Positions 6,829 through 41,800 of a DNA stretch of 64,000 nt are shown one piece after another. The stretch's first letter is position 1. Every line of letters starts with the position of its first letter. Position numbers and translations under genes: made by a program. The notes beneath the pieces were generated by a model, which saw only the letters and a list, made by a program, of their open reading frames with translations, was not told the DNA's origin and ran no database searches. Origin of the DNA: a virus; IMG/VR virus record IMGVR_UViG_3300031992_000005, positions 256,001-320,000 of that record; one strand, 5' to 3'.

Positions 6829-8115
6829 ATGGAAGTACGTGTGAGATGTTGTGGTGTTGGACCCCAGTCTTTCGCATCAGACGGTTCTCACATAAGTGAA
6901 GAGGTAGTTAGACAGTACTTAAACTCAGAAGACTATAGACTTTCTATTGACGGTAAGTTAACGATGGGTTATCTTACTCACAGGGGAAGATCGATCGAAT
7001 TCTTACCTAGCTCTATTGGTAATCCTGGAGTAAAAAAGGTAATTGGTAGAGATGATGCAGGTCTTTGTGTTGGTGAAAATCTTCCTACTTTTACACACTA
7101 TGTGAAAGAATTTTACATCGAAGATGTTCCGGGTCAAGGTCCTTGGCTTTGTGCATTGGTACATATTTTTGATGAGAAGGATGGGTTTGATCAAATTGCA
7201 ACAGAAAATATTAAGCGATTAAAAGCTCTTATTCGGAGTGGTGTTCGTCTTACCTGCTCATTAGTAGTTCTTGCTTTCTGGTCTTCTGAAAATGGTAATG
7301 GAGTAGATGAGTGTAAGAAGATTAAGGCAATTAAGAGTCTGGATTGGACTGTTAATCCTAGTTTTGGCCCATTAGCTCGTATTACCGAAGTCTATGACGA
7401 TGACCAACCTATGAAGGATGACCTTATTAAAACTTTTTCTGAGGTAGAGGGAGACAGTGATTTTATTAAGTCTCAGCCTAACAAGGAAGGTGAAATTAAG
7501 GTTAAGGTATACTCAGACCTAAGTAGTTTCGGAGATATGCCAAAAACTTCGAAGATTGGCGGTAGATTTACTGAATTAAAGGCAAAAGAATTTTCTAGTG
7601 TATGTACGATTACAGTAGATTCCTCTTCACCAGCAGTACAGAAAGAATTTACAGTTGCTACTATAAAAGAGCGTGTAAGATATGCTAAGTTTTCTCCAAG
7701 AATGAGATTTAGAAGATTATTCTTGGAATATAAGCAGTACGTTAAGCAATCGGGGGGTGCAGATAAGATCGATCCTGAGACGCTTAAAATTTTAAAGTCG
7801 CTCTTCTTATCTGATATTAATCAGATCTTCACGGGTCTTACTTCAGAAATTATTGCCGGAAAGCAGATTAATACACTCATTGGTGCAGCTTCTCTAGGTA
7901 AAGGTGTTAGACAGGCAGCTCAAAAATTACAGCTACCTTATAGAATGGCTTTCCAGGAGATGCAGAAAACTGGTAAAATTACTCCAATGAGATTTGAAAA
8001 GATTAAGACTGCTTATACAGAATTTTCTAAGGCAATGGTTGAGGAGGTATTTGGTGAGGGTCCTATCCCAGAAGGTTTGGAAGAAGAAATTAAAAATGAG
8101 GAGGGAAAACAATGA
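6829..8115 (+). CDS. Prohead serine protease (HK97/S78-like N-terminal domain) with C-terminal scaffold-like extension
   Basis: It sits between the terminase and the scaffold/capsid genes. The N-terminal ~190 aa follow the S78 pattern: candidate His in GYLTHRGRS, DDAGLCVGENL, and candidate Ser in IRSGVRLTCSLVVLAF. The C-terminal half is helical/charged with several K-x-F-S/T motifs. Confidence 0.45.
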   Translation: MEVRVRCCGVGPQSFASDGSHISEEVVRQYLNSEDYRLSIDGKLTMGYLTHRGRSIEFLPSSIGNPGVKKVIGRDDAGLCVGENLPTFTHYVKEFYIEDVPGQGPWLCALVHIFDEKDGFDQIATENIKRLKALIRSGVRLTCSLVVLAFWSSENGNGVDECKKIKAIKSLDWTVNPSFGPLARITEVYDDDQPMKDDLIKTFSEVEGDSDFIKSQPNKEGEIKVKVYSDLSSFGDMPKTSKIGGRFTELKAKEFSSVCTITVDSSSPAVQKEFTVATIKERVRYAKFSPRMRFRRLFLEYKQYVKQSGGADKIDPETLKILKSLFLSDINQIFTGLTSEIIAGKQINTLIGAASLGKGVRQAAQKLQLPYRMAFQEMQKTGKITPMRFEKIKTAYTEFSKAMVEEVFGEGPIPEGLEEEIKNEEGKQ

Positions 8116-11787: not shown

Positions 11788-13239
11788 ATGACTGATTTTT
11801 CGTATCTCATGAGTAATCCTGACATGCAGGTTGCTCTTAGAAATAGTTCAGTATCTGCAGAAGATGCTGCAATTCGTGGTAGAGAATATGCAAAGATGTT
11901 CTCTCGTAATGCGGAGATGTTGGATACTCTCGGTATGGGCCGTAATTCTAACCTCCTTCAGAAGACTTTCTCTGGCTATGCAGAGACTCCACTTCTTAGC
12001 ACTCAGTATTTTAATGCATCTGTTGCTTCTTATGTAAGCTCTTTTGCAGGTTACATGAGTATTGAACGTGACTTCGACCAGCCTAATGGCTTGTTCTATT
12101 GGTTCGATGTTCTTGGTGTAACAGACCTTCGTCCAGTTATTCCTAACCTCGGTCCAGATAACTATCAGGATATTCAGACTATGGGTTACTTCGAGCTTGA
12201 CAATCAGATCGAAGCTAGCGGTAGCTATGCTCCAATCGTTGGTCGTAAGTTGATCCCAGGTACAGTACGAGTTAAGATCGTTAACAATGATGATACTAAG
12301 TCTGAACTCGTAGATGACGGTCAGGGTCACTTCATGGCTGTTCCAGGCGTACTTGATGCTGCAACGGACGCTACAATCAACTATCTCAGTGGTAATATTA
12401 CCTTTAAGCTTGCAAACCCAGCAGTAAAATCTGTTAAGGTCGTAGGTAAGGAAGATGTAACTGGTACTCCTAGTTGCACAACTGGTACTGCAAGTACTCA
12501 TGCAAATGACAAGCGTTTCATCGCTAAGATGCAGCAGCTTGGTCTTAGCACAGTTCCTGATATGCTCGTAGCTGAATATAACATTGCAGCTCTCGGCGCA
12601 CTCAAGAAGGCAACTGGCTCTGATATGGCTACATTCTTGTTCACTAAGCTTCGCGAGATCTATACTAAAACTATCAACTATAAGCTGGTAACTACTCTTG
12701 AGAATGGTTATACCGGTAACACTATTGATGATCTTGATCTTTCTAATGGTCCTACTTCTGGTCTTGCTCAGAATTTCTACGATTATCGTTCTCGTGTAGA
12801 CCTCTTTGACTCTTTCTTGATCAACGTTGAGTCTGCACTCGCTACAAAGGCAGTTAAGGGCGTTAAGACCACTGCTTATGTTGCAGGTAATCGTGCAAGT
12901 AACCAGTTCCAGAAGGGTGGTATCATCGGTAAGTGGGAATCTAACACTAAGATGTCTTATATCAATGACCTCCTTGGCTGGTACAATGGTATTCCAGTAC
13001 TACGGAGTACAGATATTGCAGAGGAAGATGGCGAAGGTACATTCTACGCTATTCACAAGACTGCTGATGGTCAGATGGCTCCACTTGCACGTGGTATCTA
13101 TATGCCTTTGACTGATACTCCAACTATTGGTAACTACAACAACCCTACTCAGATGGCTGCTGGTATCTACTACCAGGAAGGTGTTCGAGTAATGGCTCCT
13201 GAACTTGTTCAGAAGGTTACATTCAAGGTTGGTTTCTAA
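11788..13239 (+). CDS. Major capsid protein (candidate)
   Basis: 483 aa, directly after the protease and scaffold-like genes. Codon choice looks biased toward CGT/CTT/GGT/C-ending codons relative to neighbours, suggesting high expression. A strong hairpin terminator lies downstream. No family-level motif was recognised by eye. Confidence 0.6.
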   Translation: MTDFSYLMSNPDMQVALRNSSVSAEDAAIRGREYAKMFSRNAEMLDTLGMGRNSNLLQKTFSGYAETPLLSTQYFNASVASYVSSFAGYMSIERDFDQPNGLFYWFDVLGVTDLRPVIPNLGPDNYQDIQTMGYFELDNQIEASGSYAPIVGRKLIPGTVRVKIVNNDDTKSELVDDGQGHFMAVPGVLDAATDATINYLSGNITFKLANPAVKSVKVVGKEDVTGTPSCTTGTASTHANDKRFIAKMQQLGLSTVPDMLVAEYNIAALGALKKATGSDMATFLFTKLREIYTKTINYKLVTTLENGYTGNTIDDLDLSNGPTSGLAQNFYDYRSRVDLFDSFLINVESALATKAVKGVKTTAYVAGNRASNQFQKGGIIGKWESNTKMSYINDLLGWYNGIPVLRSTDIAEEDGEGTFYAIHKTADGQMAPLARGIYMPLTDTPTIGNYNNPTQMAAGIYYQEGVRVMAPELVQKVTFKVGF

Positions 13240-19002: not shown

Positions 19003-21228
19003 ATGGCACAGTGGAAAGAAACTCTTGAACCCTATATTAGAGTTCATGAGAAAATTAAGGTTGCAGCACTTAACCCAGTAGCAGGTGAAGATTTAATCAT
19101 CGGGTGTGCATTTATTTCCGATGCAGGACCATCTCTACCTACACTTATTACTAGTCAGAAGGAATTCTTAGAGACTTATTCTTCTCAGGATATTACCGAG
19201 GATTATATTACTAGTCTCGATGATTTCTATACAAACGCTACGACAGGTGGTGATCCTCATCTAGGATCTACTATGTGGCTTAATGCATATCGTTTGGCTG
19301 GTTCTAATACTCTCTTGGCAGTGCGTGCAACAAAAGCAAAGGACCTTTATTACGCTAAGACAAGCGCTTACCCTAACGACGATTATATAGTACGTGATGG
19401 GCAAGTATTAAAGAAGATAAACGTAGGTGACGGATTAAAGATTTGTTACGATAGCGATGAAGATAGTGCAGACTGGAAGAAATTAGGTTGGGCTATTAAA
19501 CTAAGAAATATCGGTATAGTAGGTAACCTAGTAACTGAAGATGGAGTTAAATATGATTATTACGTAGATAATTTGTTTGACCTAGTTGAATATCTCAATG
19601 ATACTAGTGTATTCTTTAGTCCTAATTATGAATTTCACGACAATATTAATCAGGATGACGGAACACCCCAAACCCCAAGTACAACTAAAATATCAGAAGA
19701 TGCACTTCGAAACGGTGACAAGGAGAAAAATACTGTAAAAGCAGTAGTATTTAAGGAACTTTACTTAGGTAGTCGTATCCTAGATGCACTCGACCTTACC
19801 GGCTCAACTACTGAAGAAAGCAATGCTGAATATGGACTCATGAACATAATAGTTGGTCAATCTACTTGGACATCAGGTAATGAGTCACAGCCAGTTATTG
19901 CACTAAATGATGCAAATCATTCAGGTTTTGATCAGAAGAGTACTCTTGATAAAGGCTATGTAACTAACGTGTATAATTCAGCTACTAAGCTAGAAGTTAG
20001 AATTAGACGTTTTAATCATGATGCTGTAGCTACTAAACAGTTAACTAAACCAGATTCTAGTAGGGGCGGAAATTCTCCATATACAGTAGTATTACCTAAT
20101 TCTCTTTCGGCTTTAAACGTAAAGAGGGATTTTTACGAAATTGCCGTTTTTGATCCAAGTGTTAGTGGAGAATCCTTGTATTTTAACCTAGGTACTGTAC
20201 TGAGCTTAGGTGATATGGAATTAGTTGATATAAATAATTCCCTTAAGATGGTACAGATAACTTTGCCTGATAAACTTAGTGATCTTGGATTAGATTATTA
20301 TGGCTCAGCAGGTTCTACTCAGGAGTACTATTACGATTTAAAGCTAGATCCCGATAACACATCTCTTCTAGATGTATCCAACTCTGATATACTCAAGGCA
20401 TTAGATCAGATTCCTCTTAACGAAGTTTATACTGTAGAGGGACTCACTGACCTTGGTTGTACAGAGCCAATGGTTCAGTCTTACATGGCTAATATGGCTA
20501 TTAACGATAACTTCTTCTATCCAATTTCAACAGTTAATAGCACAAACTACTTAGCTATCGCTAATTCTATCCTACGTATTAGTCAGGATTTCTATAAGCT
20601 GTATGCAAGTGCACCTTGGGACGTGGATACTGGCACAATGGGTTGGAAGTTCTATTGCTCACCTAGTGTTCTTTACTGGGAAACCGTAGGTAGAAACAGA
20701 CGTCTTGGTAGAGAGTTTGCTCCAGTTCTTGGTCAGACTAATGGTATTGCACAATATCAGAAGCCTGTAGCTGAATTCAATAAGAAGACCCGTCAGCTAC
20801 TCCTTTCTAAGAAGATCAATACTGTTCTTTGGGATGTTCAGACTCAAGCTTGGGATTGGAACGACAACTATACAAAGCAGACTGAAAACAACATTATGTC
20901 TGATGAGGCTAATAGCCGCCTGATGATTCGTATTAGCAAGGCTATGCCAGTACTTCTCCGTCAGTTTATTGGTAGAAGAATTGGTGCTGTCCTTTGGAAT
21001 GACATGTATAATGTAATCGACTACTGGTTTAAGACTACTATTCTAGGCATGACTTATACAATTGATGGTTATAGAATTACAATTGATGAGTCTAACAATA
21101 CCCCAGAAGATGCTCGTGCAAATCGAGTGAACGTCTTAGTGGAAGTTCGTTATCAGAGAGCTGCTAAGTATATTGAAGTTTATAACAACGCATTCGACGT
21201 TGGTATGGAATTCGACGGCATTATGTAA
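19003..21228 (+). CDS. Tail sheath protein paralogue 1 (T4 gp18-like)
   Basis: 741 aa. The N-terminal pattern ITSQKEFLETYSS ... WLNAYRLAGSNTLLAVRATKAKD parallels T4 gp18 NEVDLVNTFG ... NFLQYGNDLRVVRAVDRD. The C-terminal YRITIDESNNTPEDARANRVNVLVEVRYQRAAKYIEVYN parallels gp18 YRVVCDTTNNTPSVIDRNEFVATFYIQPARSINYITLNF. Confidence 0.7.
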   Translation: MAQWKETLEPYIRVHEKIKVAALNPVAGEDLIIGCAFISDAGPSLPTLITSQKEFLETYSSQDITEDYITSLDDFYTNATTGGDPHLGSTMWLNAYRLAGSNTLLAVRATKAKDLYYAKTSAYPNDDYIVRDGQVLKKINVGDGLKICYDSDEDSADWKKLGWAIKLRNIGIVGNLVTEDGVKYDYYVDNLFDLVEYLNDTSVFFSPNYEFHDNINQDDGTPQTPSTTKISEDALRNGDKEKNTVKAVVFKELYLGSRILDALDLTGSTTEESNAEYGLMNIIVGQSTWTSGNESQPVIALNDANHSGFDQKSTLDKGYVTNVYNSATKLEVRIRRFNHDAVATKQLTKPDSSRGGNSPYTVVLPNSLSALNVKRDFYEIAVFDPSVSGESLYFNLGTVLSLGDMELVDINNSLKMVQITLPDKLSDLGLDYYGSAGSTQEYYYDLKLDPDNTSLLDVSNSDILKALDQIPLNEVYTVEGLTDLGCTEPMVQSYMANMAINDNFFYPISTVNSTNYLAIANSILRISQDFYKLYASAPWDVDTGTMGWKFYCSPSVLYWETVGRNRRLGREFAPVLGQTNGIAQYQKPVAEFNKKTRQLLLSKKINTVLWDVQTQAWDWNDNYTKQTENNIMSDEANSRLMIRISKAMPVLLRQFIGRRIGAVLWNDMYNVIDYWFKTTILGMTYTIDGYRITIDESNNTPEDARANRVNVLVEVRYQRAAKYIEVYNNAFDVGMEFDGIM

Positions 21229-21240
21229 TTATAATTTAAT

Positions 21241-21285
21241 GGGTAATACCTCATTTTGATGGTGGGGTATTACTCAATTTTTATT
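21241..21285 (+). terminator. Hairpin terminator after sheath paralogue 1
   Basis: GGGTAATACC (21241-21250) pairs with GGTATTACTC (21266-21275), including one G-U pair, followed by AATTTTTATT. Confidence 0.55.
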
Positions 21286-21291
21286 CAATAT

Positions 21292-22089
21292 ATGGATAAG
21301 ACATTATTAGTAGATCTCAAAAAGAAGATGTTCATGAGATCTGCCTTAATCTCCTTAGAGGATTCATTGGATGATGTTCTATCGCTTAGTGCTTCATTGA
21401 CAGCGGATGAGATTCTCCTAGAGATTATCAAAAAAGCTCTAAGGGAATTCGAACTAACTAATCCACTTATCCTTGAAATGCCAATGTCTAGGGAACAGAT
21501 GTTAAGTTGTACTGCTCCCAATGGCTTCCTAGAAGTAAAAAGTAATTTTACTCTATACTTAAAGTGCATGATTCCGGAATATAGGATTATCCTAGTTCCA
21601 GTATCAATGCCATGTTGGAGAGTAGGAGATAATTCTGTAACAACTAATTTCTCCTCTTATATAGGAGGTACTAGTATTCCTCAACCAGGTGCTTATACTT
21701 ACTTTACTGAATATAGAAAACCTTATGTCTTTGTAGGTGACTTAGGCTTATTGCAAGGATTGGGGGGTAGTGGTATTATAATGAAAGGTATTTGTAGCAG
21801 ACCAATAACTCCGGATTGGACAGAAGATAAGAAGTTTAATTCAGCATCGGAAACATCTGCCGTATATTGGATGGATGTAGAGACTGGAGGTGCAAGAGGT
21901 AACTACTTCATGGATCTCTGTATGGTTCATCTCTTAGACTATATCCGTCAATTAAAGGCATCTATTTCACTCAACAATGTATCAGTTGATGTTATGGGTA
22001 ATGTTGATTCAGCTTATCAAGAGCTTCGAAGTAGGTGTGACCAATATGCATTACAATCTGGATGGTATGGCGAACTATTATATAACTAG
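21292..22089 (+). CDS. Hypothetical structural protein
   Basis: The ORF track starts at TTG 21256, inside the terminator hairpin. The in-frame ATG at 21292 (MDKTLLVDLKK) is the more plausible start. Confidence 0.5.
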   Translation: MDKTLLVDLKKKMFMRSALISLEDSLDDVLSLSASLTADEILLEIIKKALREFELTNPLILEMPMSREQMLSCTAPNGFLEVKSNFTLYLKCMIPEYRIILVPVSMPCWRVGDNSVTTNFSSYIGGTSIPQPGAYTYFTEYRKPYVFVGDLGLLQGLGGSGIIMKGICSRPITPDWTEDKKFNSASETSAVYWMDVETGGARGNYFMDLCMVHLLDYIRQLKASISLNNVSVDVMGNVDSAYQELRSRCDQYALQSGWYGELLYN

Positions 22090-22092
22090 TAT

Positions 22093-22647
22093 ATGATTAT
22101 ACTCAGACAAAAAGAATATGCTTCGAGATTATTGAAAGCTGTAAGATCAGTCAAACGAGCAGGAAATAGTGCTATGACTGTGATTGACAATGCAGGTTTA
22201 AAAACAGGTAATACTATTAAAAAGTTCGTTACCGGTAAGAGTATTCCTGCACAAGTAGAGGCTAATTTTAAGCCTAAAACCAACTTCCAAATTAACAGAG
22301 AAACGGTTAAAGCAAAAAACGTCGTAAAAGATGCTGCAAACGCAGTTAAAGAACGCCCCGGTGCAGTACTCGATGATGGTATAAGTTTTGCAGCCAAGAA
22401 TCCAATTGCAGCTGCAGGGCAAGTGGGAAGTGTTGCTCTTCCTTTGGCTGATCCAGTATTTTTGGGCGTCCCTATAGGCACGCCTTCAGCTGTTATTGAC
22501 GTAACAGCAAAGAAGTTTATTAAGCCATATGATAAATATACAGAAAGAATTTCAAGAGCATACGATAGATCCAATTTCAGTAGGAATCTTAGAAGAATGC
22601 CTAATGCAACTGAAGTGATTGATAACATAAAGAGGAAATTTAAATAA
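22093..22647 (+). CDS. Leader-tagged hypothetical protein
   Basis: N-terminus MIILRQKEYASR. The mirror ORF on the minus strand (22086..22628) is rejected. Confidence 0.6.
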   Translation: MIILRQKEYASRLLKAVRSVKRAGNSAMTVIDNAGLKTGNTIKKFVTGKSIPAQVEANFKPKTNFQINRETVKAKNVVKDAANAVKERPGAVLDDGISFAAKNPIAAAGQVGSVALPLADPVFLGVPIGTPSAVIDVTAKKFIKPYDKYTERISRAYDRSNFSRNLRRMPNATEVIDNIKRKFK

Positions 22648-22666
22648 TAAACATGAAGAAAGGTGT

Positions 22667-24274
22667 ATGATAAAATTTAAAAAAAAAGAATTTACCATAC
22701 CTGAAGGACATTACACTGGCCCAAAAGACCTAACTGAAATTCCCGGAACTGTTGAAATGATAAAGAAGGGTATTGGTATTGGGGCGGTTACTGGTGGAAT
22801 AGCTGGAGGTGTAGTAAAGGATTCTTCTATAATTGAAGGAGCCTTATCAGGAGCTAAAGTAGGAACTATCGGTGGAATAGCTGCAAAACTCTTGTTGAAT
22901 TATATACATAAACCAATGACTACGATTAAATACCAAGAGGTAGATAAGACTATACGTAGACAATTCGGTATTTATCAGATTTCTGGATTTACTTTAGGCG
23001 ACAATACAATTAATAAAGGAAATATAAGGGATAAGTTCAGTTATAATGACAGAAATGTAAGTGACTATAAAATAAATTTTGCGATTTACAACAATAAGGT
23101 CACTATGTACACCTTTGGAATTACAAAAAATGAGCTAGACGGTATATCAAAAATTTTGGACGAATATTGTAAGAAATATTATGCAATGGAATATTCAGCT
23201 AAACTCATTAATCAAAAAGTATACTCTTATTCGGTAGATATTACGTTTACTAATTATCAAGTGATCAGTAATTTTATTATGGAATTGAGTAATTTTATTA
23301 ATAGTAAGATTAATCTATTGGATAATAATGCAATAATAGGGCCTAGATTACTAGAGAGTGCTGAACAGAAGAATGACTTAACTGAGGAAGAAAAAACCTA
23401 CTCTGTTAGTTCAATAAATAAATATGATTTAATAAAAATTCTGACAAAAGGTGCCACAATAGGTTTCAATATTGCAAGTTTAGCAAAAGGAAGCGCTTCA
23501 ACTGCAATTTTAGCATTAATTGCGGAAGGAATTAAACACCTTGGAAAAAATGAAATTAATAAAATTGCCGGAAATTCTGGACAGAAAATAGCTGACTTAA
23601 ATAACATATTTTTGGAAAGTGAGCTCAATAAACTTCATTACGTAGATGGTTTTAATTATACTACTGGAAATGAGGCTAATAAATTAAACATATCTCTAAA
23701 TTCAGGAATTTTTATTATAACCGCAGTTAAAGATCTGGAAGAGGAACTTGATAAGAAGATTTGGAAAACTTTTCCTGGAAAAGTGAACAAATCGAAAATT
23801 AGTGGAATTAGTGTTTATTCTTATGTAGTAAAAAATATCAGTGAATTCGAGATGTTACTAAATAAGGTAATGTCTGTAGGTGGTAGTAATGTTAAACCAA
23901 ACTTATTTGATAATTCTGCTTTTAAGAAAAAGAAACTATTTTCAAACAATATGGTAGAAAAATTAACAGATAATTTAGAAAAAGATGGATTAGAGGATTT
24001 TGAAATTAGTGATAGAATCCCCAAGGATGTAATTAGTATTACTACTGATTTAAAGAATATCAGTATTTACATTCCATTTGACCTAGATTATGCCCAGTAC
24101 GAAATTGATGACGAAATCAGACGGAATGCTAAGTTTCTTAGAACAAAAACAGTTCTAGATAGAAATATATATAGAATGACATTAATAGGTGGAACACTAA
24201 CCTTTAGCCAGTATTACAATGTCGTTAAATATATAATAAAGGAGCTAGGATTTTGTACTTTATTAGATCAATAA
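22667..24274 (+). CDS. Leader-tagged 535-aa protein with N-terminal glycine-zipper segment
   Basis: N-terminus MIKFKKKEFTIP (an in-frame A9 run encodes KKK). Contains GIGIGAVTGGIAGGVV ... GAKVGTIGGIAAKLL and an internal leader-like KKKKLFSNN. Confidence 0.6.
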   Translation: MIKFKKKEFTIPEGHYTGPKDLTEIPGTVEMIKKGIGIGAVTGGIAGGVVKDSSIIEGALSGAKVGTIGGIAAKLLLNYIHKPMTTIKYQEVDKTIRRQFGIYQISGFTLGDNTINKGNIRDKFSYNDRNVSDYKINFAIYNNKVTMYTFGITKNELDGISKILDEYCKKYYAMEYSAKLINQKVYSYSVDITFTNYQVISNFIMELSNFINSKINLLDNNAIIGPRLLESAEQKNDLTEEEKTYSVSSINKYDLIKILTKGATIGFNIASLAKGSASTAILALIAEGIKHLGKNEINKIAGNSGQKIADLNNIFLESELNKLHYVDGFNYTTGNEANKLNISLNSGIFIITAVKDLEEELDKKIWKTFPGKVNKSKISGISVYSYVVKNISEFEMLLNKVMSVGGSNVKPNLFDNSAFKKKKLFSNNMVEKLTDNLEKDGLEDFEISDRIPKDVISITTDLKNISIYIPFDLDYAQYEIDDEIRRNAKFLRTKTVLDRNIYRMTLIGGTLTFSQYYNVVKYIIKELGFCTLLDQ

Positions 24275-24278
24275 TATT

Positions 24279-24716
24279 ATGTCAGCAGAAAGTATGACCT
24301 CCAGACTATTTGATAAAGCCCAATCTTTATATCAAATAGGTTTAAAACAAATAAAAGTTCAGTTAGCCCTCAATGGCACTAAATTCATTGTCCTCAGACC
24401 AAAAGATAATTCTAAGTGGAAGAGTGTATTTGGGGGTTCATACTCCTCTGATAGTACCTTAGAAAATGACTACGAGCAATTTGATACAGTACTTGTAGTT
24501 AATACTGGTGATATGAAGGATGTATGGAATAGAAACCGAGATTCCTTAGATGCTTGGACAAACGATGGATCTTTGGAAGTTGGCGATGAACTTCAGTATA
24601 CCAGAGATGGGAGAACTTATAGATTCAAAATTTCTCTAAAACAAAGTTTTAGTGAAGCTGCATCATCGTTATTTGAATATACTCTTATGAGTATCATTGA
24701 AACATTGGATATGTAA
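24279..24716 (+). CDS. Hypothetical small structural protein (possible head-tail joining/neck component)
   Basis: 145-aa ORF just upstream of the giant tube-fold protein. The assignment rests on position and size only. Confidence 0.35.
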   Translation: MSAESMTSRLFDKAQSLYQIGLKQIKVQLALNGTKFIVLRPKDNSKWKSVFGGSYSSDSTLENDYEQFDTVLVVNTGDMKDVWNRNRDSLDAWTNDGSLEVGDELQYTRDGRTYRFKISLKQSFSEAASSLFEYTLMSIIETLDM

Positions 24717-24717
24717 A

Positions 24718-27700
24718 ATGGATAAAGAGGTTAAGAGAGATAATATGATCCCAGGGAGTTGTGAAGAATTTACAAGACCTGAGGAAATAAAAGCTCTAAG
24801 TAAATATCTTCGAAAGGTAAAAAAAGATCTTGAGGACAATACTTATTTAATTCGAGATAACCTAGAACTTTATGGTAGAGCAGATGGTAGAACAATGAGG
24901 CATATAGATGAGCTACCCGATAAAGTTGAATCCTTACAAAAGGGAGATCATCCTGAAGTTTCTACCCTCCCTGGATATAAAGAAGTATTAGGTGCTAAGG
25001 ATACTATCGAAGAATTACCTGGAGATAAAATTTCATTAGATGATGTAAGCCAAGAAACCTCCTTAAGTGATCATATAGAAACAATAGAAGTAACTGATAA
25101 ACCTTTTCTCGAAAAGAGACTAGAAATTTTAGAGAATGCTATCAGAGAAGCAGAACTTGAAAATGAAAAGGTATTATTAGAGGACAATACAGAAACTAAG
25201 CTAGATAATTATAAGTCAAGGCTACAGGATACAGAACAAGATATAGAGCTTTCTTCTACTAGAGAAGACCTGGGTAATACTGATAAACCTATAGACCTGC
25301 CAAAGAAAAAAGAAATACTGGAAGATAGCAATAGTAATCCGGACAAGTTAGGAGATTACGTAGAAACACTACATCCAAGCGTAGAGCCACCTCACCTAGA
25401 AGATCATAGAGAGGATCTAATTGTAAAAGACGAAACTAGTTTAAGTAACATTAGTGAGGTTCTTCCTAAGGATGTTGTACTACAGGAACACGAACAGTTT
25501 GATCCTAATAGAGATACTCTTTATGATGCAAATATTGCACGACCTGGAGGAGACAATGATGGGGATTCTACACTAGAAGACTATATAGATCCACTACTAG
25601 GAAAGAGAGAGGATCCTAAGCTTCATGATGAATCAACTATTACAAAAATTCAACCTAAACCTGAAGAAGTTAAACTTCACGACGATTCAACTATCACAAG
25701 AGTTAAGCCAAGTCCGGAGGAGGTTGAATTACATGATGATTCTACTATCACAAGGATTGAACCTAGTCCAGAAGAAGTAGAGTTACATGATGAATCAACT
25801 ATAACAAAAATAAAACCTAGACCTGAAGAGCCAGAGATTCATGATGACTCAACCATAACTCCTATCTTAGGAAAAATACCAGAACCAGAATTATCAGATA
25901 AATCTGAGCAAATTGTTGGTAAAATTCCAACCCCCAGATTAAATGATGATTCAACAATTACAAAGATTCAGCCAGGACCCACCTATCCAGAGCTACACGA
26001 TGATTCAACTATTACGAAGATTCAGCCCAGACCTGAGGAAGTTGAATTACACGATGAGTCTACTATCACCAAAATTCAACCAAGTCCAGAAGAAGTTGAA
26101 TTACACGATGAGTCTACTATCACAAAGATTCAGCCTAAACCTGAGGAAGTAGGGCTACATGATGAATCTACAGTAGTTCAAATAGAACCTTCTCCCGAGG
26201 AAGTAGAGTTACATGACGAATCAACAAGAACATCCATAGATGATGCAGCTTCAGGAGAACATGCGCAGTTTAATCCGAACGGAGATTCTTTATACGATGC
26301 TAATATTATCCTCCCAGGTAATATAGTAGATCCTGAGTTACATGACGATTCAACAGTAACTAAAATTCAACCAAGTCCGGAGGAAGTAGAATTACATGAT
26401 GAATCTACTGTAACTAAGATAGAACCAAGTCCTGAAGAAGTAGAGCTCCACGATGAATCTACTATAGTTCAGATAGAGCCTGGACCTGAGGAAGTTGAAC
26501 TTCACGACGATTCCACTATTACAAGAATAGAACCTAGTCCAGAGGAAGTTGAATTACATGATGATTCTACTGTAACTAAGATAGAACCTAGTCCAGAAGA
26601 AGTTGAATTACATGACGAATCTACTATTACTAGGATTGAACCTAGTCCAGAAGAAGTTGAATTGCACGATGATTCTACGATAACTAAGATAGAGCCTAGT
26701 CCTGAAGAGGTAGAGTTACATAATGAATCTACAGTAACCAAGATAGAACCTAGTCCAGTTGATCCTGAACTTCATGATAATTCTACTATCACTAAAATAG
26801 AACCTAGTCCTGAAGGGGTTGAACTTCATGACGAATCTACTATTACTAAGATAGGTCCAAATCCAGATCCTGAGTTACATGATGATTCAACAGTAACTAA
26901 AATTCAACCCGAACCTGAAGAGGTAGAGTTAACGGGTAGTTCGTCTATTTCTCACTTAGATATTCCAAAAGAACTATCTACAGAAGTACAGGTTAAGTTT
27001 GACCCAAATATAAATAAGCATACCGCTAGAACCAGTGGTATCCCATCAGAGAATCCTATCGGTTGGGGAGAAACTTTAGATGATATTGTAGAAGATATTG
27101 TAGGTGATATTCCGGAAAATTCACTATCAGAGAAAAAGGTCGAATTAGAGGATACTAGTCCTGAGGATAGCATTGAAAAACATAAAGAACTCTTAATAGA
27201 TACTAGCCCTGAAGATAGTATTGAAAAACATAAAGAACTTCTGATAGATACTAGTCCTGAGGATAAGTTGGTCAGCAAAAAGATAATTGAGGAAAATAAT
27301 ATAGAGGCTGATGAGGAAAAGTTTGTACCATACTTAGAGGCAAAAAGAAAGAAAAAACTAGAAGGCTGGGTAAAAGAAAAAAGAAGACAAGTTGACCTAG
27401 AAACTAAAGTAGTTCCTGGTATTCCTGCCCCTACTAATTCTCTTGCAGATGGTCCAGTAGAAGATTTAATTAGGGATATTAGTATGTTAAGGGATAAAGA
27501 TCTCAATGTTTATTACCAAAACATACTTAAGTTCGCGAATGACAATGTAAAGAATTTAGGGAAATGGGGAGAAAAGGCCAGAAGTATTATGTCATCCCTT
27601 GCATCTTCTAAAATGACTTCTGAAGATCTAGAAAACTTTGAAAAAAGACTGTATGGTTCAATAATTCTAGAAGATTACGCAACTAGAAAAGAGGATAGAA

Positions 27701-29328
27701 CAGACGAAGCAGATAATACTGGACTAGATGCCAAACTCAAGAAAACCTTTGAGGATGATAATCTTTTCTTTGAAGGTATTCCTTTATCTAATCTTCCTAA
27801 GAATTACTTTAACTCAGCACATGGTATAGGGTCAAGTGCATCTAATCCTAGCACATATCTTAGATGGTTAGCTGAGCGGTCCGTAGGTAGTGCTCTTAGG
27901 CATGATAAGTCTGGAAAGTTATCAAGCACAAAGAGTAGTCTTAGACAAATAGCACTTGATGAGACTCTATCACTCTTAGTTCTAGCTAGAGATAAAATGG
28001 AGAAGTTGACTAAGAGTAATCGAGATAGACTTCCAGGAAACGAAGGACTCTTAGGTGATGTGGGTAAACTTATTAGTCAAGGTGCTACTGCTGCAGTCAC
28101 TTCACTCGCTAAGAAAGCCGTGAAGGGAATGTTTGGTGCTAATAAACTAGACTACACTGTTCCTCAGAATAGACCTACCGATAAGCAAGAGACTTCTAGT
28201 TTCATTGCCATGAATGATAAGGGTAGAGATAACTCATCTGAAGGTATTGAAGGAAAAGAGTATGGTTTTCAAGAAAATTATCTAAATCCAATTAAGAAGG
28301 ATTATACAAAAGTTATTCCAGGCTTTAACTGGTCATTGGACGGTGTAAATCTCTCTAATAAGAAGTGGAATTCAACAACATATAGATTGAGAGTTCCAGA
28401 TAAAATAGAATCGGGCACTCGAGTATATCCTAGAGCCGGCATAATGACTACTTTAAGTGAACTCTGTGGGCAAGAAAATACTAGTGAAGTTGATACAGTA
28501 GATAAATTATTCAATCTACTAAAAAATAGTCCTTATATATCAACTGCAGGTAAGGTAACTTCGTCAGATGAACATCCATTAAAGGTAAGTACATTAGATT
28601 CTAATATGAGATGGGAAATAATATTTACACCTTTTGTTGGATTAGAAAACGGTGAAATATCTTTTTTACCACCAATAGAAGAAATCAATGTTTGGAATTT
28701 GGTTTACCACGGAATAAAAACGGGCTATAACTATTTTGCACCAATCAATTCGTTTGAATTAGGAAAAGCAAAATTAAATTCAAAAACAGTTCCACTATTC
28801 GAAGGAGAAATTAGTTACCCTACATCAATGGAATTCACTAATGAACTTAGACTTACTTTTGTAGACGATCAATTTAAATCGTGGAGAACTTATTTTGAGA
28901 GATGCGTAGATGCTAGTATATACAATAGTACTGTTCATAGAAAAGAAGATTATGACGGCACTTATGACATACAAGGTAAACTAACTGCCATAGATAAAAC
29001 TTATACTTGTATAGCTCCCTATAAAAATATAGCTTTTAGGTGTACTATCTATTCAATGACTCCTCAGTACAGTACAGTATCAAAGTATGATCTTCTCCTA
29101 GTAATGAAAGATTTCGCGGAAGAGAGATCGGGTGATATTGACGCCAGTGGACAAGATCTAACGGTTAATTTTAGTATTGTTGGTGAAAACCCTAGAAACG
29201 AATTAACTAAAGTTACTACACCTAACGCTATCAAATCAAATGTTTATGCACCTCCTAGAAATAATAATAGAGGGGAATATGAATCCATTATTAACGGCGG
29301 AATCGATAACATGGTTAAATTACTTTAA
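24718..29328 (+). CDS. Giant repeat protein with C-terminal T4 gp19/gp48/gp54-like tube-fold domain
   Basis: The likely start is ATG 24718 (MDKEVKRDN), just after the upstream stop; the track start at 24697 overlaps the upstream gene. There are about 23 copies of an 18-aa unit (ELHDDSTITKIEPSPEEV). The C-terminal MRWEIIFTPF ... NELRLTFVDDQFKSWRTYFERCV parallels the 197-aa tube protein (MWEFHFLTAP ... GTLTLGFVDREDQAITYFADDWRQKI). Confidence 0.6.
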   Translation: MDKEVKRDNMIPGSCEEFTRPEEIKALSKYLRKVKKDLEDNTYLIRDNLELYGRADGRTMRHIDELPDKVESLQKGDHPEVSTLPGYKEVLGAKDTIEELPGDKISLDDVSQETSLSDHIETIEVTDKPFLEKRLEILENAIREAELENEKVLLEDNTETKLDNYKSRLQDTEQDIELSSTREDLGNTDKPIDLPKKKEILEDSNSNPDKLGDYVETLHPSVEPPHLEDHREDLIVKDETSLSNISEVLPKDVVLQEHEQFDPNRDTLYDANIARPGGDNDGDSTLEDYIDPLLGKREDPKLHDESTITKIQPKPEEVKLHDDSTITRVKPSPEEVELHDDSTITRIEPSPEEVELHDESTITKIKPRPEEPEIHDDSTITPILGKIPEPELSDKSEQIVGKIPTPRLNDDSTITKIQPGPTYPELHDDSTITKIQPRPEEVELHDESTITKIQPSPEEVELHDESTITKIQPKPEEVGLHDESTVVQIEPSPEEVELHDESTRTSIDDAASGEHAQFNPNGDSLYDANIILPGNIVDPELHDDSTVTKIQPSPEEVELHDESTVTKIEPSPEEVELHDESTIVQIEPGPEEVELHDDSTITRIEPSPEEVELHDDSTVTKIEPSPEEVELHDESTITRIEPSPEEVELHDDSTITKIEPSPEEVELHNESTVTKIEPSPVDPELHDNSTITKIEPSPEGVELHDESTITKIGPNPDPELHDDSTVTKIQPEPEEVELTGSSSISHLDIPKELSTEVQVKFDPNINKHTARTSGIPSENPIGWGETLDDIVEDIVGDIPENSLSEKKVELEDTSPEDSIEKHKELLIDTSPEDSIEKHKELLIDTSPEDKLVSKKIIEENNIEADEEKFVPYLEAKRKKKLEGWVKEKRRQVDLETKVVPGIPAPTNSLADGPVEDLIRDISMLRDKDLNVYYQNILKFANDNVKNLGKWGEKARSIMSSLASSKMTSEDLENFEKRLYGSIILEDYATRKEDRTDEADNTGLDAKLKKTFEDDNLFFEGIPLSNLPKNYFNSAHGIGSSASNPSTYLRWLAERSVGSALRHDKSGKLSSTKSSLRQIALDETLSLLVLARDKMEKLTKSNRDRLPGNEGLLGDVGKLISQGATAAVTSLAKKAVKGMFGANKLDYTVPQNRPTDKQETSSFIAMNDKGRDNSSEGIEGKEYGFQENYLNPIKKDYTKVIPGFNWSLDGVNLSNKKWNSTTYRLRVPDKIESGTRVYPRAGIMTTLSELCGQENTSEVDTVDKLFNLLKNSPYISTAGKVTSSDEHPLKVSTLDSNMRWEIIFTPFVGLENGEISFLPPIEEINVWNLVYHGIKTGYNYFAPINSFELGKAKLNSKTVPLFEGEISYPTSMEFTNELRLTFVDDQFKSWRTYFERCVDASIYNSTVHRKEDYDGTYDIQGKLTAIDKTYTCIAPYKNIAFRCTIYSMTPQYSTVSKYDLLLVMKDFAEERSGDIDASGQDLTVNFSIVGENPRNELTKVTTPNAIKSNVYAPPRNNNRGEYESIINGGIDNMVKLL
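25612..26925 (+). repeat. In-frame 54-nt (18-aa) tandem repeat array, about 23 units in two blocks
   Basis: The unit is (E)LHD[DE]ST[IV]T[KR]I[EQ]PSPEEVE. The array is interrupted at about 26220-26335 by QFNPNGDSLYDANI, which echoes QFDPNRDTLYDANI upstream of the first block. Confidence 0.9.
27151..27267 (+). repeat. In-frame 48-nt tandem repeat, 2.4 copies
   Basis: DTSPEDSIEKHKELLI occurs twice, followed by DTSPEDK. The copies differ at synonymous positions. Confidence 0.85.
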
Positions 29329-29333
29329 TAATT

Positions 29334-31484
29334 ATGTACATTAAATTAGGATCAACAACATTAAATTATCCTTCTATACCGTACGATGATTTTATGGTAT
29401 TTTCCGAAGTTATCGACTCTCAAGTAGGATATGAAAAGCCAGTATTGGTTAGAACAATAGAGCAATTAGATAAATGGTTTGGTAGAGATTTTACTAGTAG
29501 AGATTATTTTGAGGAACTAATCAATAGTGGAGTAACTCTCTTACTAACAAAACCCCTAGGATCCTATTCCAATGATCTCGGAATAGAGTTCTCTGGCGAT
29601 GGTATCACGGTTGTGGATGATATTTATACATACAATAGTCTACCCACTACTACGGATCAGACCAAAGTTTATAAAGTCTATAATCCAAATGGCACTGGTG
29701 AATTTACAGGTACCCTAGGTGATACTGAGATAACTTATGACTTATATCGATGGATAGCAGATAATGAATCTATACCTAATGGCTATTACAAAAAGGATGA
29801 TTTACCTAATATCATTAAAGCAGATTCACAGTCACTGAATAATAGGGATACTCTTAGGTTATTTTCCACAGACAATACTACCGTCTACACGCATTTCGTA
29901 TATAGTGAACGCGAAAATACAGGATCAACAGAAGAGGGTTCATTGAATCTAAGTAACTTGAACTTGGAAAGAATAGAATTAGGTTATCAGACTCTAGTCT
30001 TTGATATAGTAGAGCGTGAAGATCCAGGTAATACTCTTCAAGAAAACTCTTATATAATTTTCCCTAATGAACCTACGTCAGATAAGACTGAAAATACTTT
30101 ATACTATCACGGAAATGTAGATGAGCTAGGGGTTGATAGTAAATATTATGAAGAAGGCGCTGAGATAAGCTTTGATAGCTTAGATGATCTTTTTGGGAAA
30201 TTAGAAGGAGTAGAAAAAGTAGGTAATAAGTTAGTTGCAAACCGACCTATCGATACTACATTCTTTTATGAAGGTCTCGGGATAGATCTTATACCAAATT
30301 ACCTAGAAACTCATCATATTCTTGATAAATATGAGAACTCTAAGGATAGTTCTACAGATGAACCAATCAATAATCGTATTGTAGATTTTTGGTCTAAAAC
30401 TATTGGTACTGCCGGTATTGACGGTAATATAGCTGTGACTATAGAGGAATCTTTAGATGAGGGAAATTATAGAATTATTATTGAGAGATTTGGTCACCTA
30501 GAAATTTTTGAGGGACCTATAAAAGTTACCGCAGGAATAGAAAGACTAGATTATCGAATAAGTAGATTATCTGAACTAGTGTACTGTGATTTCGCTGAAG
30601 GAATAGAAGAATTACCGTTAGGTACATGGACTTTGAAAGGAGCCATTGAAGAAACGTATAATTATGAATCTTATAACAATGGCTTAGATGAGATCTTTGA
30701 GGAAGCTGATAGAACTTTTCCAGATTTTTTCTTAATACCTGATTCTTCTTTATATGTACCGGAAAGAAATACATTAGATGAGAATATAGAGGAACACGAA
30801 AAGTTCTATAAAAAAATACTAGGATATGCCAAAGAGTCTGGATGTCAAGTATTAGTTGAGAATGAAGACACTAAAAATAATTATAAATGTAACTACACGG
30901 GTGATGTGTTTAATAGATTAGTGTACTTTTATAGATCAATGATGCTAGGTGATGTCCCTAGACCAGGCTACTATATATTTATTAGGGGATTATTAAGAGA
31001 CATTTATTCAATGTCTACTGATATAATCTACTATAAAAGCATAAAGGATCTGAGCAAAGATAAAAATTCATATGAAGAAACAGAGGAATTCGAGGATCTG
31101 AAAAAATATAAATGCAATTATTTAATAGACAACGGATTAATGTACTATTATAAAGAGTATCAGAACGGCGATAAGTATGAGACTTCAATATGGATGAGAT
31201 TTGTTCTCGGAAAAATCAAAAGAGAGTTAGAAAAGAATAAGTGGAAATACCTAGGTGAAAAAAATCAGGGAAAAATAAGAGAAAATATTTCTGCAATTCT
31301 CAATAAAGTTTCCTCTAATTTTGGAATAATTAGAGACTTAAGCATACTAGACATTAGATTCCACTTAGAAAGTAATAAGGTTGATGTTGATATTGAAACA
31401 ACAATATCAGACCTTGTAAAAAATCACATGATAGTTAATTTTACTATAAATTATAATAAGCAAGATGGCAAATACAGTATCTGA
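29334..31484 (+). CDS. Tail sheath protein paralogue 2
   Basis: 716 aa, directly upstream of and overlapping the tube gene. It has a sheath-like N-terminus (VLVRTIEQLDKWFGRDFTSRDYFEELINSGVTLLLTK) and C-terminus (SIWMRFVLGKIKRELEKNKWKYLGEKNQGKIRENISAIL ... NKVDVDIETTISDLVKNHMIVNFTINYN). Confidence 0.6.
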   Translation: MYIKLGSTTLNYPSIPYDDFMVFSEVIDSQVGYEKPVLVRTIEQLDKWFGRDFTSRDYFEELINSGVTLLLTKPLGSYSNDLGIEFSGDGITVVDDIYTYNSLPTTTDQTKVYKVYNPNGTGEFTGTLGDTEITYDLYRWIADNESIPNGYYKKDDLPNIIKADSQSLNNRDTLRLFSTDNTTVYTHFVYSERENTGSTEEGSLNLSNLNLERIELGYQTLVFDIVEREDPGNTLQENSYIIFPNEPTSDKTENTLYYHGNVDELGVDSKYYEEGAEISFDSLDDLFGKLEGVEKVGNKLVANRPIDTTFFYEGLGIDLIPNYLETHHILDKYENSKDSSTDEPINNRIVDFWSKTIGTAGIDGNIAVTIEESLDEGNYRIIIERFGHLEIFEGPIKVTAGIERLDYRISRLSELVYCDFAEGIEELPLGTWTLKGAIEETYNYESYNNGLDEIFEEADRTFPDFFLIPDSSLYVPERNTLDENIEEHEKFYKKILGYAKESGCQVLVENEDTKNNYKCNYTGDVFNRLVYFYRSMMLGDVPRPGYYIFIRGLLRDIYSMSTDIIYYKSIKDLSKDKNSYEETEEFEDLKKYKCNYLIDNGLMYYYKEYQNGDKYETSIWMRFVLGKIKRELEKNKWKYLGEKNQGKIRENISAILNKVSSNFGIIRDLSILDIRFHLESNKVDVDIETTISDLVKNHMIVNFTINYNKQDGKYSI

Positions 31485-32058
31485 TCTGGTGAGAGGAAGT
31501 AATGACTTACACCAAAAATTTATTGATTACGAAAAATCCTATAAGGATGGTAATAAAGAATTTCTTCGTGGTGATATGTGGGAATTTCATTTTCTTACCG
31601 CACCGAAGATTGTTTACTATCCAGGAGACGACTTAATTAACAAACGCCTAAATTCAGTGCAGGTAGGTATCGATTATAGCGTAATCGGTTTTGAAAAGAG
31701 AATGAGAAATAACTATGTAATCTATCAACAAGCTGACCAGTCTACGTACGGTACACTCACGCTTGGCTTTGTCGATCGTGAAGACCAGGCAATCACTTAC
31801 TTTGCAGATGACTGGAGACAAAAGATTGCTGACCGTGATACTAAGTATTCTTTCAGAAAGGATGATGTAGTAGCAGACTGTGAACTTTACATTACAAACT
31901 CATCTCGTATTGACGTTCGTTACTTACGTTTCTACAACTGTATCATAACTGATGCAACTACTGATGAAAGTGGTGCAACTGACCCTGGTACAGATCGTGC
32001 TGATATTAATATTAGCATGAAATTCGAACATTACACAAGAGAGTTTAAGAATCTTTAA
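31465..32058 (+). CDS. Tail tube protein (T4 gp19-like)
   Basis: 197 aa. Shows the gp19-family pattern: DMWEFHFLTAP ... GTLTLGFVDREDQAITYFADDWRQKIAD. It sits immediately after a sheath gene. Confidence 0.7.
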   Translation: MANTVSDLVRGSNDLHQKFIDYEKSYKDGNKEFLRGDMWEFHFLTAPKIVYYPGDDLINKRLNSVQVGIDYSVIGFEKRMRNNYVIYQQADQSTYGTLTLGFVDREDQAITYFADDWRQKIADRDTKYSFRKDDVVADCELYITNSSRIDVRYLRFYNCIITDATTDESGATDPGTDRADINISMKFEHYTREFKNL

Positions 32059-32070
32059 TTTACAGGGTTT

Positions 32071-32095
32071 GGGGTTAATGATTACAATTAACCCC
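32071..32095 (+). terminator. Stem-loop after the tube gene
   Basis: GGGGTTAAT / ATTAACCCC, 9 bp with a 7-nt loop. No strong T-run follows it. Confidence 0.4.
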
Positions 32096-38895: not shown

Positions 38896-41800
38896 ATGGC
38901 TAATAACAATCAAAATCAGCCAAAGAAAGACGAATCCTACGCTAACTATCAACAGGCAGGTCAGCAATTGCTTCAAATGAATGCTGAAAGACAGAAGAAC
39001 ATAGCTCTTCAGAGACAGGCTAATGCCAATCAGCAAGGGACTACTGAATTACTGTCACAAGCGGGCGCAATGGCAACTATGGGAGGAGGTGGTGCAGCAA
39101 TAAATCCACAGACTCAAGCTATGTTAAGGAAATATGGCTATGGTCAGCCTAAGGTACAAAGGGCTCAAGGTAGAGAAGTAAAAATTGTTCCGAATAATAT
39201 TGTTATTAATAACAACTATAACACAGTATCCAATAACAATGTTATTCCTCAACAAGGTGGTGGGAATGACGCTGCTAATAGTCAGAGTAGATTCAAGACT
39301 TGGATTAGTGGGATTTTTGCTAGACAGAAAGAGGAAACTGCTAAGAGAGACCGAGAATATCAAAAGCAAGAGTGGGCTATCGGTAAGAGCACTAATAGAA
39401 TGCTCAGACAGATGACTGATGCTGGCCGTAATGTAGCAAATGCAATAAATCCTAGAAATTTAGGTTCTTCTTTAGGTGGTCAAATAAAAACACTGCTCTT
39501 CCTATTTGGTATGAGATTTTTGTCTAAGAACTGGACTAAAATCTTGGATATAACTACTACCATAACTGGATATATAAAAGAAGGATTGGCCTTTTTTGGT
39601 ATAGGTGATGAAACTAGAGTAAAAGCCCTAGCAGCACAAGGTAAGGATTTTCGAGGCAGATTTATTTCATTTTTCACTGAACCTGCTAGAGCCAGGGATG
39701 GAAAAACTACAGTAATCAGTCTCATGAGGGAAATGATACAAAGCTTTGGAGATTACATTAAGACTTTCATTGAAGGTCAGATGGAACTTCGAGGTATCGC
39801 CATGAGAAGTATCAAATTCCCAAAAATAGACTTTAAACCTGCAGATTCGTCTGGTTGGAATCCATTAGCTAGTGCTATAAATAGTGCAATATCTAGTTTA
39901 GGTGATTCGTTGACAAATGCTCTTTCTGGCATGGGAACCTACATTGGTGATATATTTACTGCCTTTGTAAATCCTAAAGCTGGTGCAAGAAGAGCAATTG
40001 TTTCTAATGTTAGAAACTTAGGTACAGAAAATTCAAGAAAAAATCAGGAATACTATAGAAATGTAAATAGATTTACTGCAGTCAATGTATGGGATGGCGA
40101 TAAAGCAAATGGTTGGGCAGTAAATGCTGGAGACGCAGCGAATGAATTAGTAGGAGAAGATTATTATGATGCAGCGAATCATAGATACTTAAAGGGTAGT
40201 AGAAGATACGCACTCTTGGAGAATGCTCTAGAAGGTAATAGGTTAAGAAATACAGCTGGTTCTCAAATTAGCCAAGGTCGAGACTTGTTAGGTGCTATTA
40301 ATAATGCGAAAACACATGGTAGAATAGATACTGCTAGATTTGCAAGTGGTGTATCTAGACTCTATGAAGCAGCTAAGGAAAATGAAAATGGCGTAGTAGT
40401 TGACCAGGAATTTGTAAATACACTGATTGGAGAGAAACTAAAGAGAGATCTTACCTCAACTAGGGACTTAGTACCTGTTAAGATGAAGTATGTCGTAGCT
40501 GACCTAGATGCTTCAGAATACGGAAATCGAGGTTCAGAGTTATATAAGGAGGCTGCTGGAACTTCAGATGACTTGTTAGTTGGAAAAGTTCCATTATTAG
40601 GTTGGGGATTAAATGTAGCTACCGCAGGTATACAAAAATTAGGGAATTCACTTGCTACTCACCTTAATTCTAAAAAACTAATATTAGTTCCTGAATCAGA
40701 TCCTAGACCTGCAGTTACTAAGATTAAGGATGTTTGGGGTGCTAATACAACTGGTGATGTAAAAGACCTAGGAAAACCTGTCAGTACTTATTACCGATTG
40801 ACTCCAACTGCCATAGAGAAGATAATGCAACACCGCATTAGTAAGGACGCAGATATAGATAACTATGAAACATTCTTACCAGGTGTTGATAAGTTCTTAG
40901 TTCGTGCAGGTGGTGGAGAAGCAGCAGTTAATAAAAAATGGAGTGAAAGCCAGAAGAAAAACCTTCAGTTTACTCAAGAGCGTTTTGGAGGTAATCAGCG
41001 AGATTATGATATTACAAGCGGTTTTAATGAAATAAGACGTATTGAACTTGCTGAACAAAAATTACGATCTAAGATGGAGAATCATCCATTTATGGGTTAT
41101 GTTAATCGTGCTGTTAATAATGCAGAAAAACTGGTTAATAAAGGAGTTGAAGGTGTTAATAACGTTGTAAGGTGGTTTGGTACAACAGATCTTGGTAGAA
41201 ATCTTGCAACTGAGAGAGTTACTAATAAAACTGTTAGAGCTAATGCCCAAAGAATAATGGATTTCCTCATTAATGAGGGTGGATTTACTCCAGATCAAGC
41301 GATAGGAATTCTTGGAAACTTGTATATAGAATCAGGCAGATCCCTCAGTCCACGAGCAATAAATCCCAACGATAGTGGAAAAAGGTCTGTAGGCCTAGCT
41401 CAATGGAGAGACGATCGTGATAAGGCTCTTCAACAATTTGCTTCCAGTCGAGGAAAATCTTGGGATGATTTCGATACTCAGCTAGAGTTTCTTCTATGGG
41501 AACTTGGGAACAAAGAAAGAGCTGCAAACAATGCCGTTAGAAAATCGAATAATTTCCAGGAAGCTGCATATGCTTGGAGACTTTTTGAGAGATATGATGG
41601 CTGGGATACTGGCGGAAGAACTACGGGCTTGCATAAAGAACGACAGAAGGCCGCTTGGTCTATGTATAATATGCTCAAGAACGATGGATACTTTGAAGGA
41701 AAGAGATTAAGTGTTAATGGTTCTACAAGTAATGACGGCAGTGATCTAATGAATTCAAATATACCAGAAGGCTCTATCTTCATATCTACTGCACGCCCTG

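Follow-up and report, generated by a model that had tools for sequence, protein, structure and literature searches.

The 64,000-nucleotide window analysed here (bases 256001-320000 of the virus record IMGVR_UViG_3300031992_000005 in IMG/VR) contains two genes, open reading frame (ORF) A and ORF B, whose products are both predicted to fold as contractile tail sheath subunits and show no detectable similarity to each other in sequence. The explanation that we favour, with moderate confidence, is that A and a 197-amino-acid (aa) tube protein form the main tail, while B, also of sheath fold, is present in low copy number and may form a terminal adaptor ring. We infer the copy numbers, the incorporation of B into the virion and its position in the tail from the comparisons below. 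The complete record, 353,025 bp long with direct terminal repeats, comes from a jumbo myophage, and the window covers its head-tail structural region. The argument turns on three genes:

19003..21228, + strand: ORF A, 741 aa, gp18-type tail sheath, proposed major sheath subunit
29334..31484, + strand: ORF B, 716 aa, highly divergent sheath fold, proposed low-copy accessory sheath subunit
31465..32058, + strand: tail tube protein, 197 aa, PHROG_45 (gp19-type), expectation value (E) 1e-6

Predicted sheath folds of ORF A and ORF B

ORF A could be connected to known sheaths by its sequence. Residues 587-737 matched the 'tail sheath' family PHROG_23 (E 6e-9), and the Pfam sheath models gave no match to the protein. 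The gp18 of the T4-like phage Acj9 is 658 aa long; in an hhalign comparison its residues 505-654 aligned from end to end with residues 590-741 in a profile of 30 ORF A sequences (E 5e-5), revealing a DE[ST]NNTP motif common to this gp18 and the ORF A family. On such sequence evidence, A is a homologue of gp18. Its AlphaFold model was poor, with a predicted local distance difference test (pLDDT) score of 61. Foldseek matched this model best to T4 gp18 (E 3e-9) and also to the KP1 sheath, with E ranging from 3e-9 to 9e-8, and the next matches were the PVC, phiKZ and pyocin sheaths. The model thereby indicates that A folds as a contractile sheath subunit. The conserved core of the protein comprises residues 1-110 and 476-741, and variable inserted domains occupy residues ~111-475. 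Homologues were found in more than 423 clusters, on contigs of up to 391 kb. Searches of the 353-kb genome with the A profile and PHROG_23 found a single copy.

For ORF B the assignment comes from structure prediction. Its AlphaFold2 model reached a pLDDT of 74.5 and a predicted template modelling score of 0.75, and in a Foldseek search of the PDB all 13 matches at E <= 0.001, plus a 14th, were sheath chains. T4 gp18 was again the best of them (E 1.6e-8); Lin1278, KP1 and phi812 followed, down to 1e-5, and a haloarchaeal contracted sheath was also among the significant matches. Against BFVD the model gave 33 matches at E <= 0.001, and those with names were nearly all annotated as sheath, including the sheath of phage PaBG. 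The structural alignment of B with gp18 covers ~840 columns and retains the N-terminal segment, the inserted domains and the C-terminal core. As judged from the model, B too folds as a contractile sheath subunit. Its core consists of residues 1-75 and 351-716, with a variable insert at 76-350.

Sequence searches with B were negative throughout. Neither B nor 24 members of its family matched Pfam or PHROGs, a search of PDB sequences (phmmer, and hmmsearch with the family profile) returned no match to B, and hhalign aligned the B family with gp18 at a probability of 0.1%. A profile search of 1.84 billion representatives placed the B family in 255 clusters at 50% identity; among the 150 matches listed of these 255, all looked like family members and none formed a bridge to the classical sheaths. 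Because B has diverged beyond sequence recognition, automated annotation leaves it hypothetical. The N-terminus, MYIKLG, is strongly conserved in the family (M1, Y2 and L5 invariant, G6 nearly so). A profile search found one copy of B in the 353-kb genome.

The length of B varies among relatives. A minimal form of ~459 aa is encoded in a 183-kb relative with terminal repeats (G008:C1:59555-60931, L090/L043); it has no inserted domains (B residues ~102-338) and represents a core-only form of the family. In other relatives B is expanded, up to 1160 aa. The idea that B lacks a C-terminal arm was dropped, as A and B both end soon after three terminal beta-strands.

The initial annotation had placed both ORFs at exactly the coordinates and lengths given above and had read both as sheath proteins, naming as a possible refutation that one of them belonged to another fold; both proved to be of sheath type, with T4 gp18 as the top Foldseek match of each. 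It had also called the two proteins paralogues and proposed profile alignments, and these linked A to gp18 but neither B to gp18 nor A to B. In the A-B comparison, BLASTP found no match and hhalign gave a probability of 0.2%, with a match of 38 N-terminal columns only. The aligned stretch has the pattern 'hydrophobic strand ... P-x-L-[IV] ... [EQ]-[EL]', which is common to sheaths generally. A recent duplication giving rise to A and B was rejected because of the empty BLASTP result and the hhalign probability. The pair may go back to an ancient duplication or to independent acquisition, and the sequences do not tell these origins apart.

A survey of the relatives, likewise proposed in advance, showed that the two genes occur together. 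Of 18 related IMG/VR records with an A gene, each searched whole, 16 also contain B, and the other two are contig-end fragments whose sequence stops shortly past A. Among 80 loci with A at their centre, the order p929-capsid-p360-...-p227-A-p277-p535-p145-giant-B-tube was invariant wherever the DNA reaches. The block from p277 to giant-B-tube was also found in two contigs from ENA, and a more distant contig carries the block from p535 through giant-B-tube; in all of these the flanks stop short of any A homologue. Pairwise distances between A cores correlated with those between B cores (r = 0.76), which suggests that A and B have been inherited vertically together. The A/B pair is old and fixed in the clade.

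Unequal constraint on A and B

Conservation was compared across the same 16 related genomes as identity to the window protein. The tube was 60-72% identical and A 44-74%, and B reached 28-38%. When only the cores were considered, mean identity was 0.64 for the tube, 0.58 for A and 0.40 for B; the p-distance of the B core was 1.6 times that of the A core. In the inserted domains mean identity fell to 0.39 for A and 0.19 for B.

The inequality extended to codon usage. With a codon score whose weights were taken from the capsid gene alone, A ranked at 0.97 among 358 ORFs, the tube at 0.96 and B at 0.36. In a principal component analysis of codon usage, A and the tube grouped with the capsid gene at an extreme of the main axes, and B fell among the average genes. 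The same was seen in all 16 relatives, where A and the tube have similar codon scores, far above that of B, and B resembles the giant protein encoded directly upstream of it and other neighbours. By these sequence measures, A behaves like an abundant virion protein. The initial annotation had taken the tube-adjacent protein for the canonical sheath; the evidence points instead to the non-adjacent A as the T4-type sheath.

The two genes also end differently. Directly 3' of the ORF A stop lies one further element:

21240..21276, + strand: intrinsic-terminator-like site, a 16-bp hairpin followed by ATTTTTATT

This strong hairpin is the sole terminator-like site on the + strand between 11000 and 30900. 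Hairpins were also found 3' of the capsid gene and of the tube gene (~32068-32095). None was found 3' of B, whose end instead overlaps the start of the tube gene: the ORF B stop (31484) lies past the tube start (31465), an overlap of 20 nt. As had been claimed, only B adjoins the 197-aa tube gene. A PHROG_45 search found this tube gene to be single in the genome.

Short group I introns split both A and the tube gene in relatives, and B is one open frame in the same genomes. Group I introns typically home into highly conserved sequence.

Some details of these interruptions were observed directly. Inserts of 155-220 nt split the tube gene of several relatives (L084, L086, L089, L092 and L095) at recurring positions, following residues ~49, ~117 and ~168. 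In L086 (relative G003, 2900-4200) three matches to Rfam group I introns were obtained, with E from 9e-7 to 5e-5 and below the gathering score; two of them fall on the gaps between tube exons and the third just past the last aligned exon. The tube gene of the window itself has no interruption. In the A orthologue of L062, ORF-less group I-like introns lie at the exon gaps (11815-11988 and 12312-12519; RF00028, E 1e-5 and 4e-5, below the gathering score), and L021 and L055 have similar ones. A stretch of ~1.8 kb separates the end of the A match from p277 in many relatives, and tblastn did not find the last ~36-68 residues of A in that stretch.

Genes around A, B and the tube

Every long ORF of the window lies on the + strand. 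Besides A, B and the tube, five features of the module enter the discussion:

21292..22089, + strand: p277, 265 aa from the ATG at 21292, conserved, without leader tag
22667..24274, + strand: p535, leader-tagged (MIKFKKKEFT), conserved
24279..24716, + strand: p145, small, very conserved
24697..29328, + strand: giant protein, 1543 aa, acidic 18-aa repeats and a conserved C-terminal region of ~300 aa (28366-29325)
38896-44490: tape measure protein with a peptidase domain, 1864 aa

Leader-tagged genes do separate A from B, as the earlier reading had it: besides p535, p184 lies between them and starts with MIILRQKEYAS. For p277, the TTG listed as the start of the 277-aa ORF (21256) falls inside the hairpin 3' of ORF A. 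Translation more likely begins at the ATG at 21292, with MDKTLL..., which relatives share. The protein is 46-65% identical across the 16 relatives, is present in 78 of the 80 loci, and had no match in the PDB, Pfam or PHROGs. The small p145 also carries no leader tag; at 63-73% identity in relatives it matches the conservation of the tube, and it had no match in Pfam, PHROGs or the PDB. Both were tried as candidate tail terminator or neck proteins, with negative results by profile against the PDB and by hhalign to gp15 and gp14 of Acj9. Together, p145 and p277 are probably core tail or neck parts.

The giant protein lies invariably directly upstream of B. Its N-terminal ~1200 aa (24697-28365) consist of acidic, proline-containing 18-aa repeats with a consensus of roughly EEVELHDESTITKIEPSP. 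Among relatives the protein ranges from 845 to 3093 aa and the number of repeats is highly variable; the C-terminal ~300 aa alone are conserved (45-58% identity). The repeat region may be an elastic or fibre-like element. The tail module had been described as containing two tube-fold proteins, the 197-aa tube and the C-terminus of the giant protein. The first assignment stands on its PHROG_45 match. For the second, sequence methods gave no tube signal (BLASTP, PHROGs, profile against the PDB, hhalign to the tube family and to gp19, and PF06841 were all negative), and these negatives are weak because the positive control, hhalign of the tube family against gp19, failed as well.

In a tblastn search of 50,697 cultured phage records, B, the tube and the C-terminus of the giant protein had no match, and the C-terminus of A had one, to a gp18, at E 0.9. 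The genes of the window have AT-rich leaders in which Shine-Dalgarno motifs are nearly absent: in the 40 nt upstream of 19 genes (6829-38896), a GGAGG-like stretch was found at 8112 alone. Ribosome-binding signals were therefore set aside as a means of discriminating between the genes, since the leaders are uniformly AT-rich. The scarcity of Shine-Dalgarno motifs is compatible with a host of the Bacteroidota type, although it is only suggestive of one.

Role of B and comparison with known systems

In the mechanism that we propose, a complete 353-kb jumbo myophage, belonging to a large clade without Shine-Dalgarno motifs in its genes, would build a long contractile tail from the gp19-type 197-aa tube and hundreds of copies of A, its T4 gp18 orthologue. 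B would be an extremely diverged second sheath-fold protein, vertically inherited with A and made in far lower amounts. Joining the A lattice through the ordinary sheath 'handshake' core, it would make up a specialised ring, or a few of them, at the baseplate-proximal or the neck-proximal end of the sheath. Its variable inserts, and perhaps the neighbouring giant protein too, would give that end of the sheath special properties. The role of B would then be functionally like that of Afp4 or Pvc3/4 in extracellular contractile injection systems (eCIS).

Two lines of argument lead to this proposal. B has kept the whole sheath topology and a conserved extreme N-terminus, which suggests that it still joins the sheath lattice, most plausibly in terminal rings. 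The initial annotation had left a heteromeric, a regionally specialised and a repurposed sheath protein as options; the unequal conservation and codon bias of the two proteins favour a regionally specialised or accessory protein over an equal two-component sheath. As the constant neighbour of B, the giant protein is a candidate partner.

Several points weigh against this proposal. The chief one is that B, and not A, fills the classical sheath slot upstream of and overlapping the tube gene; in other myophages such a position is a mark of the main sheath, and it suggests coupled synthesis. A itself, with its end at 21228, lies well away from the tube start at 31465, and this separation is kept in all relatives. 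The A model is also poor in its core. Copy number is gauged here only by proxy, through codon bias and conservation, and the clear purifying selection on the N-terminus and core of B, together with the size of its family, would also fit an abundant subunit. Finally, the two sheath proteins of PaBG are both major virion bands (PMC7412058).

We consider it rather unlikely that the sheath is heteromeric, with A and B both abundant and co-polymerising along the whole tail in a PaBG-like manner, for example as alternating rings or strands. A two-component sheath of this kind is reported for Afp2 and Afp3 as well. Such an arrangement would account for two full-length sheath folds with conserved N- and C-terminal cores, for their co-inheritance and clade-wide conservation, and for the overlap of B with the tube start. 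Both proteins also carry hypervariable inserted domains, as expected of surface-exposed subunits, and the two virion sheath bands of PaBG set a precedent (PMC7412058). However, quasi-equivalent positions in a lattice should constrain two subunits alike, and A and B have no detectable similarity whereas the PaBG pair is 38% identical. In addition, the B core evolves ~1.6 times faster than that of A, and the codon usage of B is that of an average or low-copy gene, here and in all 16 relatives.

That B has been repurposed, its sheath fold now serving outside the contractile lattice (in a decoration of the baseplate or neck, in an assembly factor, or in a chaperone that acts on the giant protein or the tube), appears quite improbable to us. 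Its lack of a sequence link to any sheath family, its fast evolution and low codon bias, and its invariable linkage to the giant repeat protein would all fit such a role, but the whole sheath architecture is kept over the ~840 columns aligned to gp18, and M1, Y2 and L5 of the extreme N-terminus are invariant, with G6 nearly so. In the pyocin and T4 sheath structures, the N-terminus is the inter-subunit arm. The inverse assignment, with B as the main sheath partnered with the tube and A as an accessory (an outer layer, a collar or a head-proximal structure), draws on the B-tube gene order with its 20-nt overlap, the position of A next to capsid-module and leader-tagged genes and the better AlphaFold2 model of B, but is very improbable given that sequence homology to gp18 is seen in A and not in B, alongside a tube of gp19 type (PHROG_45), that A, unlike B, tracks the tube in conservation and codon bias, and that A has its own terminator-like hairpin, like the capsid gene.

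The proposal of B as a low-copy terminal ring can be taken further, to a composite tail that we regard as unlikely in this full form. Here rings of B, co-assembled with the conserved C-terminal domain of the giant protein, would cap or seat the T4-type sheath formed by A. This would be a phage counterpart of the layered sheath/tube adaptor of eCIS, possibly anchoring an elastic fibre or whisker apparatus undescribed in phages.

The main tail proposed here resembles that of T4. A shares with gp18 the predicted fold, a C-terminal domain detectable by sequence and the combination of a conserved core with exposed inserted domains, and the tube is gp19-type. In T4, however, the single sheath gene adjoins gp19, whereas here the gp18-type gene lies 8 kb from the tube gene and a second, unrelated-looking sheath-fold gene sits beside it. 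A single sheath protein has been reported for phiKZ and Goslar, and every solved myophage tail that we compared (T4, phi812, phiKZ and Goslar) has one.

To our knowledge, the PaBG group comprises the only two-sheath phages reported, and layered sheath paralogues are otherwise found in bacterial injection devices. PaBG has a two-component tail sheath, gp76 and gp213, encoded by non-adjacent genes that are conserved in its group (Kurochkina et al. 2018, Virology 515:46; Evseev et al. 2020, PMC7412058). These proteins are 38% identical, of similar size and both major virion bands, and their origin is attributed to duplication (PMC7412058). The phage described here is likewise a jumbo myophage with two non-adjacent sheath-fold genes conserved in its group, and a PaBG sheath model is among the structural matches of B. 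It is set apart from PaBG by A and B not being recognisably related; their conservation and codon bias are also unequal. What is new is a pair of non-adjacent sheath-fold genes without sequence similarity, evolving asymmetrically throughout a very large clade of uncultured phages. Hundreds of uncultured jumbo-phage lineages have a second sheath-fold gene as a fixed feature, and its family, with 255 clusters at 50% identity, is a new one for annotators to use. If B co-polymerises with A, no heteromeric sheath known would be more divergent. Both outcomes, accessory ring or co-polymer, bear on how contraction waves start and propagate.

The other comparison is with eCIS, in which the layers near the baseplate are made of paralogues such as Afp4 or Pvc3/4; at least one eCIS sheath paralogue is reportedly confined to such layers (Desfosses 2019; Jiang 2019). 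The Afp sheath is built of Afp2, Afp3 and Afp4, so that one device contains several sheath-fold proteins (PMC12961389). The analogy with eCIS that had been drawn for this module is a resemblance only, in the presence of multiple sheath-fold proteins, and the role of a baseplate-proximal paralogue is the one that we propose for B. It does not extend to the particle as a whole: eCIS are tail-like particles without capsid or packaging genes, whereas the present phage bears a capsid, and its genome contains T4-like head genes and one for a tape measure. Of multiple tube paralogues such as those of eCIS, sequence methods detected the 197-aa tube only, the negatives for the C-terminus of the giant protein being weak. 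The eCIS paralogues are, moreover, neighbouring and mutually recognisable, and A and B are not. If B does form a terminal adaptor ring, phages would have evolved the way in which eCIS attach a sheath to a baseplate or neck of complex build.

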